Positions 1-37,825 of a stretch of 37,825 nt of DNA are shown piece after piece. Source of the stretch: Escherichia phage T7. The DNA lies in sequence record MZ375271.1; one strand, given 5' to 3'. Below the pieces are notes generated by a model, which searched no databases, was not told where the DNA came from, and was given only the letters and a program-made list of their open reading frames with translations. The position numbers and the translations under genes were made by a program. Position 1 is the first letter of the stretch, and every line of letters begins with the position of its first letter.

Positions 1-141
1 CTCACAGTGTACGGACCTAAAGTTCCCCCATAGGGTGTACCTAAAGCCCAGCCAATCACCTAAAGTCAACCTTCGGTTGACCTTGAGGGTTCCCTAAGGG
101 TTTGTCTTTGGGTGTTACCTTGAGTGTCTCTCTGTGTCCCT
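1..141. repeat. Left terminal repeat (direct terminal redundancy); first base of the repeat lies outside the window
   Basis: Identical copy at 37608..37748; begins ctcacagtgtacgg as in T7-type genome ends. Confidence 0.8.
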
Positions 142-154
142 CTCTGTTACAGTC

Positions 155-322
155 TCCTAAAGTATCCTCCTAAAGTCACCTCCTAACGTCCATCCTAAAG
201 CCAACACCTAAAGCCAACACCTAAAGACCCATCAAGTCAACGCCTATCTTAAAGTTTAAACATAAAGACCAGACCTAAAGACCAGACCTAAAGACACTAC
301 ATAAAGACCAGACCTAAAGACG
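155..322. repeat. Array of short imperfect direct repeats (cctaaag / acctaaagac type) next to the left terminal repeat
   Basis: Reiterated cctaaag-containing units visible by eye; position matches T7 left-end repeat region involved in concatemer processing. Confidence 0.7.
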
Positions 323-368
323 CCTTGTTGTTAGCCATAAAGTGATAACCTTTAATCATTGTCTTTAT

Positions 369-391
369 TAATACAACTCACTATAGGGAGA
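369..391 (+). promoter_or_regulatory. T7 RNAP promoter phiOL
   Basis: taatacaactcactatagggaga, -17..+6, +1 at 386; -11 is A not G. Confidence 0.8.
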
Positions 392-442
392 GACAACTTA
401 AAGAGACTTAAAAGATTAATTTAAAATTTATCAAAAAGAGTA

Positions 443-479
443 TTGACTTAAAGTCTAACCTATAGGATACTTACAGCCA
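443..479 (+). promoter_or_regulatory. E. coli sigma70 early promoter A1
   Basis: -35 ttgact 443..448, 17-nt spacer, -10 gatact 466..471, start near 479. Confidence 0.85.
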
Positions 480-569
480 TCGAGAGGGACACGGCGAATA
501 GCCATCCCAATCGACACCGGGGTCAACCGGATAAGTAGACAGCCTGATAAGTCGCACGAAAAACAGGTA

Positions 570-607
570 TTGACAACATGAAGTAACATGCAGTAAGATA
601 CAAATCG
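570..607 (+). promoter_or_regulatory. E. coli sigma70 early promoter A2
   Basis: -35 ttgaca 570..575, -10 taagat 594..599. Confidence 0.8.
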
Positions 608-694
608 CTAGGTAACACTAGCAGCGTCAACCGGGCGCACAGTGCCTTCTAGGTGACTTAAGCGCACCACGGCACATAAGGTGAAACAAAACGG

Positions 695-731
695 TTGACA
701 ACATGAAGTAAACACGGTACGATGTACCACA
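695..731 (+). promoter_or_regulatory. E. coli sigma70 early promoter A3
   Basis: -35 ttgaca 695..700, -10 tacgat 718..723, start near 731. Confidence 0.8.
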
Positions 732-839
732 TGAAACGACAGTGAGTCACCACACTGAAAGGTGATGCGGTCTAACGAAACCTGACCTAAGACGCTCTTT
801 AACAATCTGGTAAATAGCTCTTGAGTGCATGACTAGCGG

Positions 840-885
840 ATAACTCAAGGGTATCGCAAGGTGCCCTTTATGATATTCACTAATA
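840..885 (+). promoter_or_regulatory. RNase III processing hairpin R0.3
   Basis: aactcaagggtatcgcaaggtgccctttatga; member of the recurring ctcaagg...ggcctttatga hairpin family upstream of gene 0.3. Confidence 0.6.
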
Positions 886-905
886 ACTGCACGAGGTAAC
901 ACAAG

Positions 906-1259
906 ATGGCTATGTCTAACATGACTTACAACAACGTTTTCGACCACGCTTACGAAATGCTGAAAGAAAACATCCGTTATGATGACATCCGTGACACTGA
1001 TGACCTGCACGATGCTATTCACATGGCTGCCGATAATGCAGTTCCGCACTACTACGCTGACATCTTTAGCGTAATGGCAAGTGAGGGCATTGACCTTGAG
1101 TTCGAAGACTCTGGTCTGATGCCTGACACCAAGGACGTAATCCGCATCCTGCAAGCGCGTATCTATGAGCAATTAACGATTGACCTCTGGGAAGACGCAG
1201 AAGACTTGCTCAATGAATACTTGGAGGAAGTCGAGGAGTACGAGGAGGATGAAGAGTAA
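906..1259 (+). CDS. 0.3: Ocr anti-restriction protein (DNA mimic inhibiting type I restriction-modification), 117 aa
   Basis: ORF-track 117 aa [10 protein letters not shown]...; very acidic, C-terminal [11 protein letters not shown]; first gene after A1-A3. Confidence 0.95.
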
Positions 1260-1390
1260 TGTCTACTACCAACGTGCAATACGGTCTGACCGCTCAAACT
1301 GTACTTTTCTATAGCGACATGGGGCGGCGTGGCATAGACGAAAGGAAAAGGTTAAAGCCAAGAAACTCGCCGCACTTGAACAGGCACTAG
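1259..1390 (+). pseudogene. 0.4: Chimeric 43-codon remnant: 5' part of gene 0.4 joined to sequence from just upstream of gene 0.7 (deletion scar)
   Basis: Starts atgtctactaccaacgtgcaatacgg overlapping the 0.3 stop (taATG); reading frame runs into the 0.7 upstream region and stops at tag 1388..1390. Confidence 0.5.
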
Positions 1391-1438
1391 CCAACACACT
1401 GAACGCTATCTCATAACGAACATAAAGGACACAATGCA

Positions 1439-2518
1439 ATGAACATTACCGACATCATGAACGCTATCGACGCAATCAAAGCACTGCCAATCTGTGAACT
1501 TGACAAGCGTCAAGGTATGCTTATCGACTTACTGGTCGAGATGGTCAACAGCGAGACGTGTGATGGCGAGCTAACCGAACTAAATCAGGCACTTGAGCAT
1601 CAAGATTGGTGGACTACCTTGAAGTGTCTCACGGCTGACGCAGGGTTCAAGATGCTCGGTAATGGTCACTTCTCGGCTGCTTATAGTCACCCGCTGCTAC
1701 CTAACAGAGTGATTAAGGTGGGCTTTAAGAAAGAGGATTCAGGCGCAGCCTATACCGCATTCTGCCGCATGTATCAGGGTCGTCCTGGTATCCCTAACGT
1801 CTACGATGTACAGCGCCACGCTGGATGCTATACGGTGGTACTTGACGCACTTAAGGATTGCGAGCGTTTCAACAATGATGCCCATTATAAATACGCTGAG
1901 ATTGCAAGCGACATCATTGATTGCAATTCGGATGAGCATGATGAGTTAACTGGATGGGATGGTGAGTTTGTTGAAACTTGTAAACTAATCCGCAAGTTCT
2001 TTGAGGGCATCGCCTCATTCGACATGCATAGCGGGAACATCATGTTCTCAAATGGAGACGTACCATACATCACCGACCCGGTATCATTCTCGCAGAAGAA
2101 AGACGGTGGCGCATTCAGCATCGACCCTGAGGAACTCATCAAGGAAGTCGAGGAAGTCGCACGACAGAAAGAAATTGACCGCGCTAAGGCCCGTAAAGAA
2201 CGTCACGAGGGGCGCTTAGAGGCACGCAGATTCAAACGTCGCAACCGCAAGGCACGTAAAGCACACAAAGCTAAGCGCGAAAGAATGCTTGCTGCGTGGC
2301 GATGGGCTGAACGTCAAGAACGGCGTAACCATGAGGTAGCTGTAGATGTACTAGGAAGAACCAATAACGCTATGCTCTGGGTCAACATGTTCTCTGGGGA
2401 CTTTAAGGCGCTTGAGGAACGAATCGCGCTGCACTGGCGTAATGCTGACCGGATGGCTATCGCTAATGGTCTTACGCTCAACATTGATAAGCAACTTGAC
2501 GCAATGTTAATGGGCTGA
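1439..2518 (+). CDS. 0.7: Gene 0.7 serine/threonine protein kinase / host transcription shut-off, 359 aa
   Basis: ORF-track 359 aa [14 protein letters not shown]...; basic Arg/Lys-rich segment followed by C-terminal domain. Confidence 0.93.
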
Positions 2519-2521
2519 TAG

Positions 2522-2580
2522 TCTTATCTTACAGGTCATCTGCGGGTGGCCTGAATAGGTACGATTTACTAACTGGAAGA
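2522..2580 (+). promoter_or_regulatory. RNase III processing hairpin R1 upstream of gene 1
   Basis: acaggtcatctgcgggtggcctgaataggtacgattt hairpin between 0.7 stop and gene 1 start. Confidence 0.55.
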
Positions 2581-2588
2581 GGCACTAA

Positions 2589-5240
2589 ATGAACACGATT
2601 AACATCGCTAAGAACGACTTCTCTGACATCGAACTGGCTGCTATCCCGTTCAACACTCTGGCTGACCATTACGGTGAGCGTTTAGCTCGCGAACAGTTGG
2701 CCCTTGAGCATGAGTCTTACGAGATGGGTGAAGCACGCTTCCGCAAGATGTTTGAGCGTCAACTTAAAGCTGGTGAGGTTGCGGATAACGCTGCCGCCAA
2801 GCCTCTCATCACTACCCTACTCCCTAAGATGATTGCACGCATCAACGACTGGTTTGAGGAAGTGAAAGCTAAGCGCGGCAAGCGCCCGACAGCCTTCCAG
2901 TTCCTGCAAGAAATCAAGCCGGAAGCCGTAGCGTACATCACCATTAAGACCACTCTGGCTTGCCTAACCAGTGCTGACAATACAACCGTTCAGGCTGCAG
3001 CAAGCGCAATCGGTCGGGCCATTGAGGACGAGGCTCGCTTCGGTCGTATCCGTGACCTTGAAGCTAAGCACTTCAAGAAAAACGTTGAGGAACAACTCAA
3101 CAAGCGCGTAGGGCACGTCTACAAGAAAGCATTTATGCGAGTTGTCGAGGCTGACATGCTCTCTAAGGGTCTACTCGGTGGCGAGGCGTGGTCTTCGTGG
3201 CATAAGGAAGACTCTATTCATGTAGGAGTACGCTGCATCGAGATGCTCATTGAGTCAACCGGAATGGTTAGCTTACACCGCCAAAATGCTGGCGTAGTAG
3301 GTCAAGACTCTGAGACTATCGAACTCGCACCTGAATACGCTGAGGCTATCGCAACCCGTGCAGGTGCGCTGGCTGGCATCTCTCCGATGTTCCAACCTTG
3401 CGTAGTTCCTCCTAAGCCGTGGACTGGCATTACTGGTGGTGGCTATTGGGCTAACGGTCGTCGTCCTCTGGCGCTGGTGCGTACTCACAGTAAGAAAGCA
3501 CTGATGCGCTACGAAGACGTTTACATGCCTGAGGTGTACAAAGCGATTAACATTGCGCAAAACACCGCATGGAAAATCAACAAGAAAGTCCTAGCGGCCG
3601 CCAACGTAATCACCAAGTGGAAGCATTGTCCGGTCGAGGACATCCCTGCGATTGAGCGTGAAGAACTCCCGATGAAACCGGAAGACATCGACATGAATCC
3701 TGAGGCTCTCACCGCGTGGAAACGTGCTGCCGCTGCTGTGTACCGCAAGGACAAGGCTCGCAAGTCTCGCCGTATCAGCCTTGAGTTCATGCTTGAGCAA
3801 GCCAATAAGTTTGCTAACCATAAGGCCATCTGGTTCCCTTACAACATGGACTGGCGCGGTCGTGTTTACGCTGTGTCAATGTTCAACCCGCAAGGTAACG
3901 ATATGACCAAAGGACTGCTTACGCTGGCGAAAGGTAAACCAATCGGTAAGGAAGGTTACTACTGGCTGAAAATCCACGGTGCAAACTGTGCGGGTGTCGA
4001 TAAGGTTCCGTTCCCTGAGCGCATCAAGTTCATTGAGGAAAACCACGAGAACATCATGGCTTGCGCTAAGTCTCCACTGGAGAACACTTGGTGGGCTGAG
4101 CAAGATTCTCCGTTCTGCTTCCTTGCGTTCTGCTTTGAGTACGCTGGGGTACAGCACCACGGCCTGAGCTATAACTGCTCCCTTCCGCTGGCGTTTGACG
4201 GGTCTTGCTCTGGCATCCAGCACTTCTCCGCGATGCTCCGAGATGAGGTAGGTGGTCGCGCGGTTAACTTGCTTCCTAGTGAAACCGTTCAGGACATCTA
4301 CGGGATTGTTGCTAAGAAAGTCAACGAGATTCTACAAGCAGACGCAATCAATGGGACCGATAACGAAGTAGTTACCGTGACCGATGAGAACACTGGTGAA
4401 ATCTCTGAGAAAGTCAAGCTGGGCACTAAGGCACTGGCTGGTCAATGGCTGGCTTACGGTGTTACTCGCAGTGTGACTAAGCGTTCAGTCATGACGCTGG
4501 CTTACGGGTCCAAAGAGTTCGGCTTCCGTCAACAAGTGCTGGAAGATACCATTCAGCCAGCTATTGATTCCGGCAAGGGTCTGATGTTCACTCAGCCGAA
4601 TCAGGCTGCTGGATACATGGCTAAGCTGATTTGGGAATCTGTGAGCGTGACGGTGGTAGCTGCGGTTGAAGCAATGAACTGGCTTAAGTCTGCTGCTAAG
4701 CTGCTGGCTGCTGAGGTCAAAGATAAGAAGACTGGAGAGATTCTTCGCAAGCGTTGCGCTGTGCATTGGGTAACTCCTGATGGTTTCCCTGTGTGGCAGG
4801 AATACAAGAAGCCTATTCAGACGCGCTTGAACCTGATGTTCCTCGGTCAGTTCCGCTTACAGCCTACCATTAACACCAACAAAGATAGCGAGATTGATGC
4901 ACACAAACAGGAGTCTGGTATCGCTCCTAACTTTGTACACAGCCAAGACGGTAGCCACCTTCGTAAGACTGTAGTGTGGGCACACGAGAAGTACGGAATC
5001 GAATCTTTTGCACTGATTCACGACTCCTTCGGTACCATTCCGGCTGACGCTGCGAACCTGTTCAAAGCAGTGCGCGAAACTATGGTTGACACATATGAGT
5101 CTTGTGATGTACTGGCTGATTTCTACGACCAGTTCGCTGACCAGTTGCACGAGTCTCAATTGGACAAAATGCCAGCACTTCCGGCTAAAGGTAACTTGAA
5201 CCTCCGTGACATCTTAGAGTCGGACTTCGCGTTCGCGTAA
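2589..5240 (+). CDS. 1: T7 RNA polymerase (single-subunit DNA-directed RNA polymerase), 883 aa
   Basis: ORF-track 883 aa MNTINIAKNDFSDIELAAIPFNTLADHYGERLAREQL...ending FAFA; recognised sequence. Confidence 0.98.
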   Translation: MNTINIAKNDFSDIELAAIPFNTLADHYGERLAREQLALEHESYEMGEARFRKMFERQLKAGEVADNAAAKPLITTLLPKMIARINDWFEEVKAKRGKRPTAFQFLQEIKPEAVAYITIKTTLACLTSADNTTVQAAASAIGRAIEDEARFGRIRDLEAKHFKKNVEEQLNKRVGHVYKKAFMRVVEADMLSKGLLGGEAWSSWHKEDSIHVGVRCIEMLIESTGMVSLHRQNAGVVGQDSETIELAPEYAEAIATRAGALAGISPMFQPCVVPPKPWTGITGGGYWANGRRPLALVRTHSKKALMRYEDVYMPEVYKAINIAQNTAWKINKKVLAAANVITKWKHCPVEDIPAIEREELPMKPEDIDMNPEALTAWKRAAAAVYRKDKARKSRRISLEFMLEQANKFANHKAIWFPYNMDWRGRVYAVSMFNPQGNDMTKGLLTLAKGKPIGKEGYYWLKIHGANCAGVDKVPFPERIKFIEENHENIMACAKSPLENTWWAEQDSPFCFLAFCFEYAGVQHHGLSYNCSLPLAFDGSCSGIQHFSAMLRDEVGGRAVNLLPSETVQDIYGIVAKKVNEILQADAINGTDNEVVTVTDENTGEISEKVKLGTKALAGQWLAYGVTRSVTKRSVMTLAYGSKEFGFRQQVLEDTIQPAIDSGKGLMFTQPNQAAGYMAKLIWESVSVTVVAAVEAMNWLKSAAKLLAAEVKDKKTGEILRKRCAVHWVTPDGFPVWQEYKKPIQTRLNLMFLGQFRLQPTINTNKDSEIDAHKQESGIAPNFVHSQDGSHLRKTVVWAHEKYGIESFALIHDSFGTIPADAANLFKAVRETMVDTYESCDVLADFYDQFADQLHESQLDKMPALPAKGNLNLRDILESDFAFA

Positions 5241-5878: not shown

Positions 5879-5892
5879 AGGAGATAAACATT

Positions 5893-7428: not shown

Positions 7429-8010
7429 TGGGACTGTTAGATGGTGAAGCCTGGGAAAAAGAAAACCCGCCAGTACAAGCAACTGGGTGTATAGCTTGCT
7501 TAGAGAAAGATGACCGTTATCCACACACCTGTAACAAAGGAGCTAACGATATGACCGAACGTGAACAAGAGATGATCATTAAGTTGATAGACAATAATGA
7601 AGGTCGCCCAGATGATTTGAATGGCTGCGGTATTCTCTGCTCCAATGTCCCTTGCCACCTCTGCCCCGCAAATAACGATCAAAAGATAACCTTAGGTGAA
7701 ATCCGAGCGATGGACCCACGTAAACCACATCTGAATAAACCTGAGGTAACTCCTACAGATGACCAGCCTTCCGCTGAGACAATCGAAGGTGTCACTAAGC
7801 CTTCCCACTACATGCTGTTTGACGACATTGAGGCTATCGAAGTGATTGCTCGTTCAATGACCGTTGAGCAGTTCAAGGGATACTGCTTCGGTAACATCTT
7901 AAAGTACAGACTACGTGCTGGTAAGAAGTCAGAGTTAGCGTACTTAGAGAAAGACCTAGCGAAAGCAGACTTCTATAAAGAACTCTTTGAGAAACATAAG
8001 GATAAATGTT

Positions 8011-9118: not shown

Positions 9119-9538
9119 GTGGAACTGCGGGAGAAAATCCTTGAGCGAATCAAGGTGACTTCCTCTGGGTGTTGGGAGTGGCAGGGCGCTACGAACAATA
9201 AAGGGTACGGGCAGGTGTGGTGCAGCAATACCGGAAAGGTTGTCTACTGTCATCGCGTAATGTCTAATGCTCCGAAAGGTTCTACCGTCCTGCACTCCTG
9301 TGATAATCCATTATGTTGTAACCCTGAACACCGTTCCATAGGAACTCCAAAAGAGAACTCCACTGACATGGTAAATAAGGGTCGCTCACACAAGGGGTAT
9401 AAACTTTCAGACGAAGACGTAATGGCAATCATGGAGTCCAGCGAGTCCAATGTATCCTTAGCTCGCACCTATGGTGTCTCCCAACAGACTATTTGTGATA
9501 TACGCAAAGGGAGGCGACATGGCAGGTTACGGCGCTAA
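9119..9538 (+). CDS. 2.8: Gene 2.8 HNH endonuclease-like protein, 139 aa
   Basis: ORF-track 139 aa; motif HSCDNPLCCNPEHRSIGTPKENSTDMVNKGR; clear paralogy to gene 7.7 product. Confidence 0.8.
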   Translation: MELREKILERIKVTSSGCWEWQGATNNKGYGQVWCSNTGKVVYCHRVMSNAPKGSTVLHSCDNPLCCNPEHRSIGTPKENSTDMVNKGRSHKGYKLSDEDVMAIMESSESNVSLARTYGVSQQTICDIRKGRRHGRLRR

Positions 9539-12716: not shown

Positions 12717-14831
12717 ATGATCGTTTCTGACATCGAAGCTAACGCCCTCTTAGAGAGCGTCACTAAGTTCCACTGCGGGGTTATCTACGACTACTCCACC
12801 GCTGAGTACGTAAGCTACCGTCCGAGTGACTTCGGTGCGTATCTGGATGCGCTGGAAGCCGAGGTTGCACGAGGCGGTCTTATTGTGTTCCACAACGGTC
12901 ACAAGTATGACGTTCCTGCATTGACCAAACTGGCAAAGTTGCAATTGAACCGAGAGTTCCACCTTCCTCGTGAGAACTGTATTGACACCCTTGTGTTGTC
13001 ACGTTTGATTCATTCCAACCTCAAGGACACCGATATGGGTCTTCTGCGTTCCGGCAAGTTGCCCGGAAAACGCTTTGGGTCTCACGCTTTGGAGGCGTGG
13101 GGTTATCGCTTAGGCGAGATGAAGGGTGAATACAAAGACGACTTTAAGCGTATGCTTGAAGAGCAGGGTGAAGAATACGTTGACGGAATGGAGTGGTGGA
13201 ACTTCAACGAAGAGATGATGGACTATAACGTTCAGGACGTTGTGGTAACTAAAGCTCTCCTTGAGAAGCTACTCTCTGACAAACATTACTTCCCTCCTGA
13301 GATTGACTTTACGGACGTAGGATACACTACGTTCTGGTCAGAATCCCTTGAGGCCGTTGACATTGAACATCGTGCTGCATGGCTGCTCGCTAAACAAGAG
13401 CGCAACGGGTTCCCGTTTGACACAAAAGCAATCGAAGAGTTGTACGTAGAGTTAGCTGCTCGCCGCTCTGAGTTGCTCCGTAAATTGACCGAAACGTTCG
13501 GCTCGTGGTATCAGCCTAAAGGTGGCACTGAGATGTTCTGCCATCCGCGAACAGGTAAGCCACTACCTAAATACCCTCGCATTAAGACACCTAAAGTTGG
13601 TGGTATCTTTAAGAAGCCTAAGAACAAGGCACAGCGAGAAGGCCGTGAGCCTTGCGAACTTGATACCCGCGAGTACGTTGCTGGTGCTCCTTACACCCCA
13701 GTTGAACATGTTGTGTTTAACCCTTCGTCTCGTGACCACATTCAGAAGAAACTCCAAGAGGCTGGGTGGGTCCCGACCAAGTACACCGATAAGGGTGCTC
13801 CTGTGGTGGACGATGAGGTACTCGAAGGAGTACGTGTAGATGACCCTGAGAAGCAAGCCGCTATCGACCTCATTAAAGAGTACTTGATGATTCAGAAGCG
13901 AATCGGACAGTCTGCTGAGGGAGACACAGCATGGCTTCGTTATGTTGCTGAGGATGGTAAGATTCATGGTTCTGTTAACCCTAATGGAGCAGTTACGGGT
14001 CGTGCGACCCATGCGTTCCCAAACCTTGCGCAAATTCCAGGTGTACGTTCTCCTTATGGAGAGCAGTGTCGCGCTGCTTTTGGCGCTGAGCACCATTTGG
14101 ATGGGATAACTGGTAAGCCTTGGGTTCAGGCTGGCATCGACGCATCCGGTCTTGAGCTACGCTGCTTGGCTCACTTCATGGCTCGCTTTGATAACGGCGA
14201 GTACGCTCACGAGATTCTTAACGGCGACATCCACACTAAGAACCAGATAGCTGCTGAACTACCTACCCGAGATAACGCTAAGACGTTCATCTATGGGTTC
14301 CTCTATGGTGCTGGTGATGAGAAGATTGGACAGATTGTTGGTGCTGGTAAAGAGCGCGGTAAGGAACTCAAGAAGAAATTCCTTGAGAACACCCCCGCGA
14401 TTGCAGCACTCCGCGAGTCTATCCAACAGACACTTGTCGAGTCCTCTCAATGGGTAGCTGGTGAGCAACAAGTCAAGTGGAAACGCCGCTGGATTAAAGG
14501 TCTGGATGGTCGTAAGGTACACGTTCGTAGTCCTCACGCTGCCTTGAATACCCTACTGCAATCTGCTGGTGCTCTCATCTGCAAACTGTGGATTATCAAG
14601 ACCGAAGAGATGCTCGTAGAGAAAGGCTTGAAGCATGGCTGGGATGGGGACTTTGCGTACATGGCATGGGTACATGATGAAATCCAAGTAGGCTGCCGTA
14701 CCGAAGAGATTGCTCAGGTGGTCATTGAGACCGCACAAGAAGCGATGCGCTGGGTTGGAGACCACTGGAACTTCCGGTGTCTTCTGGATACCGAAGGTAA
14801 GATGGGTCCTAATTGGGCGATTTGCCACTGA
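12717..14831 (+). CDS. 5: T7 DNA polymerase (family A, 3'-5' exonuclease proofreading), 704 aa
   Basis: [28 protein letters not shown]...; internal start of ORF-track 12570..14831 with RBS aggagaaa. Confidence 0.97.
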
Positions 14832-17560: not shown

Positions 17561-17860
17561 ATGGGTAAGAAAGTTAAGAAGGCCGTGAAGAAAGTCCTCA
17601 AGTCCGTTAAGAAAGTCGTTAAGGAAGGGGCTAGTCCGGTTAAACAGGTTGCTGGCGGTCTAGCTGGTCTGGCTGGTGGTACTGGTGAAGCACAGATGGT
17701 GGAAGTACCACAAGCTGCCGCACAGATTGTTGACGTACCTGAGAAAGAGGTTTCCACTGAGGACGAAGCACAGACAGAAAGCGGACGCAAGAAAGCTCGT
17801 GCTGGCGGTAAGAAATCCTTGAGTGTAGCCCGTAGCTCCGGTGGCGGTATCAACATTTAA
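17561..17860 (+). CDS. 7.3: Gp7.3 tail/adsorption protein, 99 aa, Lys-rich N-terminus
   Basis: ORF-track 99 aa MGKKVKKAVKKVLKSVKKVVKEGASPVKQ... Confidence 0.85.
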   Translation: MGKKVKKAVKKVLKSVKKVVKEGASPVKQVAGGLAGLAGGTGEAQMVEVPQAAAQIVDVPEKEVSTEDEAQTESGRKKARAGGKKSLSVARSSGGGINI

Positions 17861-37606: not shown

Positions 37607-37748
37607 TCTCACAGTGTACGGACCTAAAGTTCCCCCATAGGGTGTACCTAAAGCCCAGCCAATCACCTAAAGTCAACCTTCGGTTGACCTTGAGGGTTCC
37701 CTAAGGGTTTGTCTTTGGGTGTTACCTTGAGTGTCTCTCTGTGTCCCT
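37607..37748. repeat. Right terminal repeat
   Basis: tctcacagtgtacgg...ctgtgtccct; 37608..37748 identical to 1..141. Confidence 0.8.
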
Positions 37749-37825
37749 CTCTGTTACAGTCTCCTAAAGTATCCTCCTAAAGTCACCTCCTAACGTCCAT
37801 CCTAAAGCCAACACCTAAAGCCAAC

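Follow-up and report, generated by a model that had tools for sequence, protein, structure and literature searches.

Deletion between direct repeats in bacteriophage T7 is reportedly stimulated by double-strand breaks, as in the system that Kong and Masker described in 1994. Deletions in the interval between genes 0.3 and 0.7 were called classic in laboratory T7 by the initial annotation of the DNA studied here, and the literature backs this statement (Studier et al. 1979; Cunningham et al. 1997; PMC6042481; PMC8923235). Early-region deletions arise and spread without CRISPR pressure (PMC6042481, PMC8923235), and a recurrent deletion of about 1.4 kb running from 0.3 to 0.7 has been reported in unrelated T7 evolution lines (PMC8923235). 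For the classical deletions, a shorter early region has been argued to speed genome entry and growth (PMC6042481).

The study that bears most directly on the present DNA is CiPGr, a CRISPR/Cas9-based iterative reduction of the T7 genome (Yuan et al., Nucleic Acids Res 2022; PMC9825161; GenBank MZ375237-MZ375292 and OL964739-41). In that work the host, E. coli MG1655, contained Cas9 together with a library of plasmids, and T7 was taken through 300 transfers on it. Every plasmid combined a guide with a 2 x 50-bp homology template for the removal of either a whole gene (the cassette-gene design) or 100 bp (cassette-100). The targets were non-essential genes, with about six spacers per gene of interest. 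Large and small plaques were sequenced every 10 transfers, the clones being named by transfer number and plaque size, and genomes were assembled de novo with SOAPdenovo (PMC9825161). Loss of 'gp0.3-0.6' is listed there as an undesigned large deletion and breseq detected it in population reads too; CRISPR escape is the authors' explanation for such losses, and their discussion treats ocr as important in the EcoKI-positive host MG1655 (PMC9825161).

Examination of the window, by which we mean the whole analysed stretch of 37,825 nucleotides, revealed a scar in this same interval. We interpret it, with a probability of about 0.85, as the mark of a 563-bp deletion that arose in the non-essential early region of T7 spontaneously and not by design. 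That it descends from the CiPGr lineage as an undesigned deletion associated with a repeat we hold with high confidence. The scar represents no new biological element and no new gene, and it is already known: deposited genomes carry it and the source paper mentions it. Its only mildly novel point is a reciprocal pair of junction alleles.

Extent and junction of the deletion

Alignment of the window with wild-type T7 (V01146, 39,937 bp) by BLAST and MAFFT, the check put forward in the initial annotation, revealed a single clean gap of 563 bp, with ends at reference positions 1341/1342 and 1903/1904 in V01146 numbering. Apart from this gap the window is 99.9% identical to the reference, and the gap is not a chance feature. 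The left flank matches through window position 1322 (reference 1341) and the right flank from the same position (reference 1904). The junction is therefore a shared G1322 between positions 1321 and 1323, in line with the earlier placement near 1321/1322, and the two BLAST segments overlap exactly at 1322-1333. The distance from the 0.3 stop to the 0.7 ATG is 179 nt in the window (1259 to 1439) versus 742 nt in the reference (1279-2020), close to the 180 and about 740 nt first given. Both endpoints fall in the non-essential early region left of gene 1, one in gene 0.4 and the other in the 0.6B extension. The earlier description of a deletion scar carrying a chimeric 0.4 remnant is thus borne out by the alignment to V01146.

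At the endpoints lies an imperfect direct repeat of 12 nt, with a left copy at reference 1341-1352 (GTGCGCTGTGGC, in gene 0.4) and a right copy at 1904-1915 (GGGCGGCGTGGC, in the 0.6B extension). The two copies are identical at 9 of 12 positions, in exact blocks of 1, 3 and 5 nt, and a single hybrid copy is kept at the junction. Each copy is in the frame that is translated (VRCG versus GRRG). In the allele carried by the window, exact homology at the crossover amounts to only 1 nt. Such a repeat is statistically unremarkable: between reference positions 1279 and 2005 there are 141 pairs of 12-mers that agree at 9 or more of 12 positions, where shuffled sequence would be expected to give about 96, and an exact repeat of 10 nt (CAATGGCACA), its copies 453 bp apart, went unused. 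Because the repeat is weak, homology permitted the event but alone fails to explain the endpoints, and the position of the cut and selection must be invoked. The features of the locus are collected in Table 1.

Table 1. Features at and around the deletion junction, in window coordinates
Feature	Position	Strand	Basis
RNase III-type processing hairpin upstream of 0.3 (R0.3), kept	820..899	+	CCTTTATGAT and hairpin at window 865 (reference 884); stem 850-865
Gene 0.3 (ocr, anti-restriction), intact; stop overlaps the start of the chimeric ORF (TAATG)	906..1259	+	ORF list; V01146 925-1278, 0 substitutions
Chimeric 43-codon ORF, gp0.4 residues 1-21 plus last 22 residues of gp0.6B, in frame	1259..1390	+	ORF list and translation comparison
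Deletion junction, one hybrid copy of the imperfect 12-nt direct repeat in its right-hand version (GGGCGGCGTGGC)	1322..1333	none	BLAST overlap and flank comparison
Kept wild-type sequence (reference 1905-2020): end of the 0.6B frame and untouched gene 0.7 leader/ribosome-binding region	1323..1438	+	Perfect match to the right flank of the reference
Gene 0.7 (protein kinase, host transcription shut-off), intact	1439..2518	+	ORF list; V01146 annotation, 0 substitutions

The chimeric open reading frame

The ORF starting at 1259 had been described from the sequence as the N-terminus of gene 0.4 continued into a chimera of 43 codons, and comparison of its translation with V01146 agrees: the first 21 residues are identical to gp0.4. 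The description of the remainder as sequence normally found upstream of 0.7 also stood, and could be refined. The tail, GRRGIDERKRLKPRNSPHLNRH followed by the stop, is the translation of reference 1905-1972 in the 0.6B frame, that is, the in-frame C-terminus of the possible gene 0.6B. The chimera has the start codon native to 0.4 and the stop codon native to 0.6B (window 1390, reference 1972); codon 21/22 of gene 0.4 is joined to a point from which 68 nt of the 0.6B frame remain. The sibling GenBank records leave the ORF unannotated. An exact look-up of the chimeric proteins of both junction alleles among 15 billion proteins found neither.

In wild-type T7, gp0.4 is a two-helix FtsZ inhibitor of 51 residues, and each of the single substitutions V22A, W28A/L, M32A, L35A/P and Y39A abolishes its FtsZ binding or toxicity (PMC13423816). 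The deletion removes residues 22-51, and V22, W28, M32, L35 and Y39 are all absent from the chimera. Since every one of these FtsZ-critical residues is missing, we can safely infer that FtsZ inhibition by gp0.4 is lost in the window phage. The product of gene 0.6 has been reported to target MreB (PMC5624674), and its inhibition of MreB would likewise be lost. The phage is consequently described here as one without the FtsZ inhibitor gp0.4, gp0.5 and the MreB inhibitor gp0.6. The 43-amino acid fusion peptide is probably made but functionless. Annotators of such genomes should mark this ORF as a 0.4::0.6B fusion and not as a new small gene.

Genes and processing signals lost or kept

Lying wholly inside the gap are gene 0.5 (reference 1496-1639), gene 0.6A (1636-1797) and the minor E. 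coli promoter B (1514). The frameshifted 0.6B extension has lost its first part, which is most of it, and keeps the last 68 nt of its frame. Because the chimeric ORF stops at the 0.6B stop codon, gene 0.6B is truncated and not wholly missing. The initial annotation, which had genes 0.5 and 0.6 missing, is therefore right for 0.5 and 0.6A and has to be corrected for 0.6B, whose C-terminal frame was kept. Genes 0.3 and 0.7 and their translation signals are untouched by the deletion, and the start of gene 0.7 is still preceded by 116 nt of native leader.

The deleted segment also contained a strong hairpin (reference 1441-1465, -19 kcal/mol) bearing the signature ACTCAAGG-hairpin-CCTTTATGAT, which is common to the sites upstream of 0.3 and 1.1. 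The reference has three copies of this signature, one upstream of 0.3 (at 884), one at 1462 and one upstream of 1.1 (at 5881), and of these the window lacks only that at 1462. We take the deleted hairpin to be the RNase III site R0.5 of Dunn and Studier (1983), which separates the 0.3 mRNA from the 0.7 mRNA. The loss of an RNase III site, also proposed at the outset, is confirmed in that the R0.5-type hairpin and its signature at reference 1462 are absent from the window. Downstream of R0.3, the next early site identified is the R1.1-type hairpin, with its motif at window 5299; site R1 presumably lies between 0.7 and gene 1. A kept RNase III site directly upstream of gene 0.7 ('R0.7') was considered and rejected, window 1360-1440 folding no better than shuffles (z = +0.8) and the signature being absent there. 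The deleted R0.5-type hairpin was thus the sole RNase III-type site of the interval. A scan of window positions 1-3000 against Rfam gave no family matches. A sigma-70 promoter scan of positions 850-1600 was empty, and so no new promoter was made at the junction. Genes 0.3 and 0.7 would now be carried on one RNase III-processed early mRNA instead of two.

Source of the window and distribution of the junction

The window shares 99.93% identity over its full length with MZ375275.1 ('Mutant Escherichia phage T7 clone T7_220L'), from which it differs by 14 substitutions outside the mis-aligned repeat ends, the ends themselves being trimmed differently. No record of the collection searched matches it byte for byte. 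Two further records, MZ375257 and MZ375259, have deletion sets that differ from that of the window. In the phage collection, 41 records have the contiguous junction, and every one is entitled 'Mutant Escherichia phage T7 clone T7_...' (MZ3752xx, OL96473x-4x), and the clone names and numbers of these siblings match the CiPGr study. The sibling clones are plaque-purified phages (PMC9825161), which together with the unchanged genes 0.3 and 0.7 of the window speaks for viability.

Among natural relatives of T7 no contiguous junction was found; N30, C5, NC-A and YpP-R match in two pieces about 640 bp apart. Searches with the junction in both allelic forms gave 0 matches each in IMG/VR, the JGI metagenomes and the GTDB genomes. 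By the collections searched, this specific 563-bp junction is private to one experiment, and the scar marks the window as an engineered and evolved laboratory T7 and not a natural variant.

Two junction alleles

Two forms of the junction can be distinguished in the 41 records. Allele A, that of the window, retains the right-hand copy of the repeat (GACATGG-GGCGGCGTGGC-ATAGACG, 31 records), and allele B the left-hand copy (GACATGG-TGCGCTGTGGC-ATAGACG, 10 records). Only GGGCGGCGTGGC or GTGCGCTGTGGC occurs at the junction, with no mosaic form among the 41 records. Exactly 563 bp are deleted in both, and each yields a fusion of 43 amino acids. Among the sequenced clones, two per time point, the earliest with allele A is from transfer 30 and the earliest with allele B from transfer 150; allele B is also present on an early-type genome of 38,846 bp (T7_5t1).

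Clones T7_210L (MZ375273.1, left copy) and T7_220L (MZ375275.1, right copy), sampled 10 transfers apart, differ over 37,757 bp only at positions 1324, 1328 and 1329. Since these three bases are their only difference, both alleles circulate on the same background, presumably by way of recombination in the population. The chance that two unguided deletions share their register is roughly 5 in 100,000 (estimated as 12 / (700 x 700 / 2)), and the alleles are therefore mechanistically linked through the repeat. The idea that allele B is an artefact of reference-based deletion coordinates was rejected as the main explanation, the genomes having been assembled de novo.

As to the nature of this link, the simplest reading is that the alleles are the two strands of one annealing heteroduplex, which replication without mismatch repair would turn into exactly such a pair. 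It is possible, if on balance doubtful, that one single-strand-annealing heteroduplex formed across the 12-nt repeat, with its three mismatches, after a Cas9 cut and that replication then separated its strands without mismatch correction. Two separate events guided by the same repeat would yield an identical pair. If the alleles did descend from one heteroduplex, T7 would repair breaks by annealing at homology as poor as 9 of 12 positions, and both products would persist side by side for hundreds of transfers on one genetic background. The pair may accordingly be a record of T7 repairing Cas9 breaks at very weak homology, which is of relevance to the design of phage editing and genome reduction and to the prediction of CRISPR-escape deletions.

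Probable formation and selection of the deletion

Most likely, the deletion formed at the repeat after cutting by Cas9 and was then selected as a CRISPR escape. Cas9 cuts in genes 0.4-0.6 would have produced double-strand breaks, whose ends the recombination machinery of T7 may have resected and annealed at the short repeat, with the loss of 563 bp. Of 60 possible SpCas9 (NGG) sites in the interval, 49 fall within the deleted segment, among them all of those in 0.5 and 0.6A. The product could thus have shed most or all of its targeted protospacers at once and survived as an escape mutant, keeping the ocr that it would need against EcoKI in MG1655. It would then have replaced the larger 0.3::0.7 deletion of transfer 20 and persisted to transfer 300, a replacement that the retention of ocr would explain.

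Two other deletions of the same series in this interval end at short repeats as well. In the early clone T7_20L (MZ375235.1, 1244-1256), 1480 bp are missing at an exact repeat of 13 nt (AGGAAGTCGAGGA), with the result that ocr runs in frame into the C-terminal third of the 0.7 kinase. This deletion answers to what has been described for the recurrent one of about 1.4 kb mentioned above, and it was not seen in the series after about transfer 30. A third deletion, of 676 bp, lies at a repeat matching at 8 of 9 positions (T7_40L, T7_100L.2). Cutting by Cas9 is not strictly required for such events, because early-region deletions also spread without CRISPR. Here too, entry of the genome and growth may be faster with a shorter early region.

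An alternative that departs from this explanation only in the mode of formation is replication slippage (copy-choice) at the short repeat without any double-strand break, the product spreading through faster growth in rich medium and perhaps also through escape from Cas9. The junction of allele B would suit the realignment of a primer, with its exact match of 5 nt (GTGGC) at the 3' end of the repeat. For allele A, however, the nascent 3' end would be mismatched at its second base, which a proofreading polymerase should reject. The emergence of three different deletions in a 740-nt interval within 40 transfers under Cas9 pressure, and the assignment of such losses to CRISPR escape by the authors of the experiment (PMC9825161), also argue against slippage, which we regard as unlikely while giving it some weight.

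Designed and undesigned deletions in the window

Several other deletions of the window are of the designed type. Those of gene 1.4 (reference 7608-7763, 156 bp; window 7025/7026) and gene 4.7 (reference 13927-14334, 408 bp; window 12698/12699) are ORF-exact, as the cassette-gene design predicts, and those in 3.8 (292 bp), 4.3 (198 bp) and 5.3 (338 bp) have an end at or within a few bases of an ORF boundary. With such deletions in the same genome, and with templates of 2 x 50 bp in use, the 563-bp deletion might itself have been templated by the homology cassette of a CiPGr plasmid. Its endpoints, however, lie inside gene 0.4 (codon 21/22) and inside the 0.6B extension, neither of them at a gene boundary, and it comprises neither one whole gene nor 100 bp. 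Moreover, two alleles differing at three bases are not expected from a single synthetic template, and the source paper classes the gp0.3-0.6 loss as an undesigned large fragment (PMC9825161). A designed origin is therefore very unlikely. The unmatched boundaries and the paper's own classification led us to file the scar as a spontaneous deletion selected in the experiment.

Collapse of the sequence between two similar 12-mers by the de novo assembler might also produce such a gap, given that SOAPdenovo was used and that the ends of the window are imperfectly trimmed. An assembly graph would nevertheless not collapse at a repeat as short and imperfect as this one of 12 nt with three mismatches. 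The junction is shared by 41 separately assembled clones, early clones from the same pipeline keep the interval (T7_10L, 39,938 bp), and the loss was seen independently by breseq in population reads, all of which makes an artefact extremely improbable. Finally, an origin from a natural relative of T7 in which genes 0.5 and 0.6 were never present can hardly be credited, even though some T7-like phages (T3, Bas67, Bas68) are without gene 0.4 homologues (PMC13423816), the flanks being identical to T7 and the contiguous junction occurring in no natural phage record, nor in IMG/VR, the JGI metagenomes or the GTDB genomes.

Other differences from the reference

Near the right end, at window 37445/37446 (reference ~39420-39608), a 189-bp deletion removes most of gene 19.5, its flanks overlapping by 9 nt (a short direct repeat). 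Loss of gp19.5 is another undesigned large fragment listed in the source paper, and an 8-bp deletion lies nearby (reference 39684-39691).

Two substitutions fall on promoters. The T7 promoter phiOL has an A>G change at its annotated start (window 386, reference 405); the resulting TAATACAACTCACTATAGGGAGA matches the consensus initiation sequence of strong T7 promoters, and the change may be an up-mutation of this replication and early promoter. The strong late promoter phi10, which precedes the major capsid gene, has G>T at its annotated +1 (window 20930, reference 22904), a change that might lower the initiation of capsid mRNA. Relative to V01146, gene 1 (T7 RNA polymerase) carries the missense changes V137A, Q184R and V337A (window 2998, 3139 and 3598); two of them are common to T7_220L, and position 3598 differs between T7_220L and the window. 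Pairs of adjacent substitutions at window 9333-9334 (gene 2.8, L72R) and 17597-17598 (gene 7.3, T13) may be old errors in the 1983 reference and not mutations.

The same 18-bp deletion is found in both copies of the terminal repeat (window ~100 and ~37704; reference 102-119 and 39876-39893). It is absent in early clones, in which the junction lies at record position 1299, and present in later ones (1281). At the start of the window the first T7 base (T) is missing, and at its end, after the right terminal repeat, positions 37749-37825 hold 77 nt of unique left-end sequence, 37607-37822 matching reference 1-234. These untidy ends are due to de novo assembly wrapping around concatemer-junction reads and are not biology.

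Comparison with described systems

The formation proposed here resembles the system reported by Kong and Masker in 1994 in its sequence of steps, namely a break between direct repeats, resection, annealing and loss of the intervening DNA. It differs in that the break is the presumed work of Cas9 and in that the repeats are natural, 12 nt long and imperfect.

With the gp0.3-0.6 loss of the CiPGr experiment the relation is one of identity: the deletion of the window is the same event, and its junction is identical in 31 deposited clones, including T7_30L, T7_130L, T7_140L and T7_220L. The junction itself, the in-frame 0.4::0.6B fusion and the existence of two junction alleles go undescribed in the main text of that study.

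The classical deletions of Studier et al. (1979) and Cunningham et al. (1997) resemble the present one: they too lie in the non-essential early region, end at short direct repeats, leave the phage viable and recur in laboratory passage. The 563-bp deletion differs from them in sparing both 0.3 and 0.7, in the imperfect and much weaker repeat that it uses and, by the collections searched, in having been seen only under Cas9 selection.
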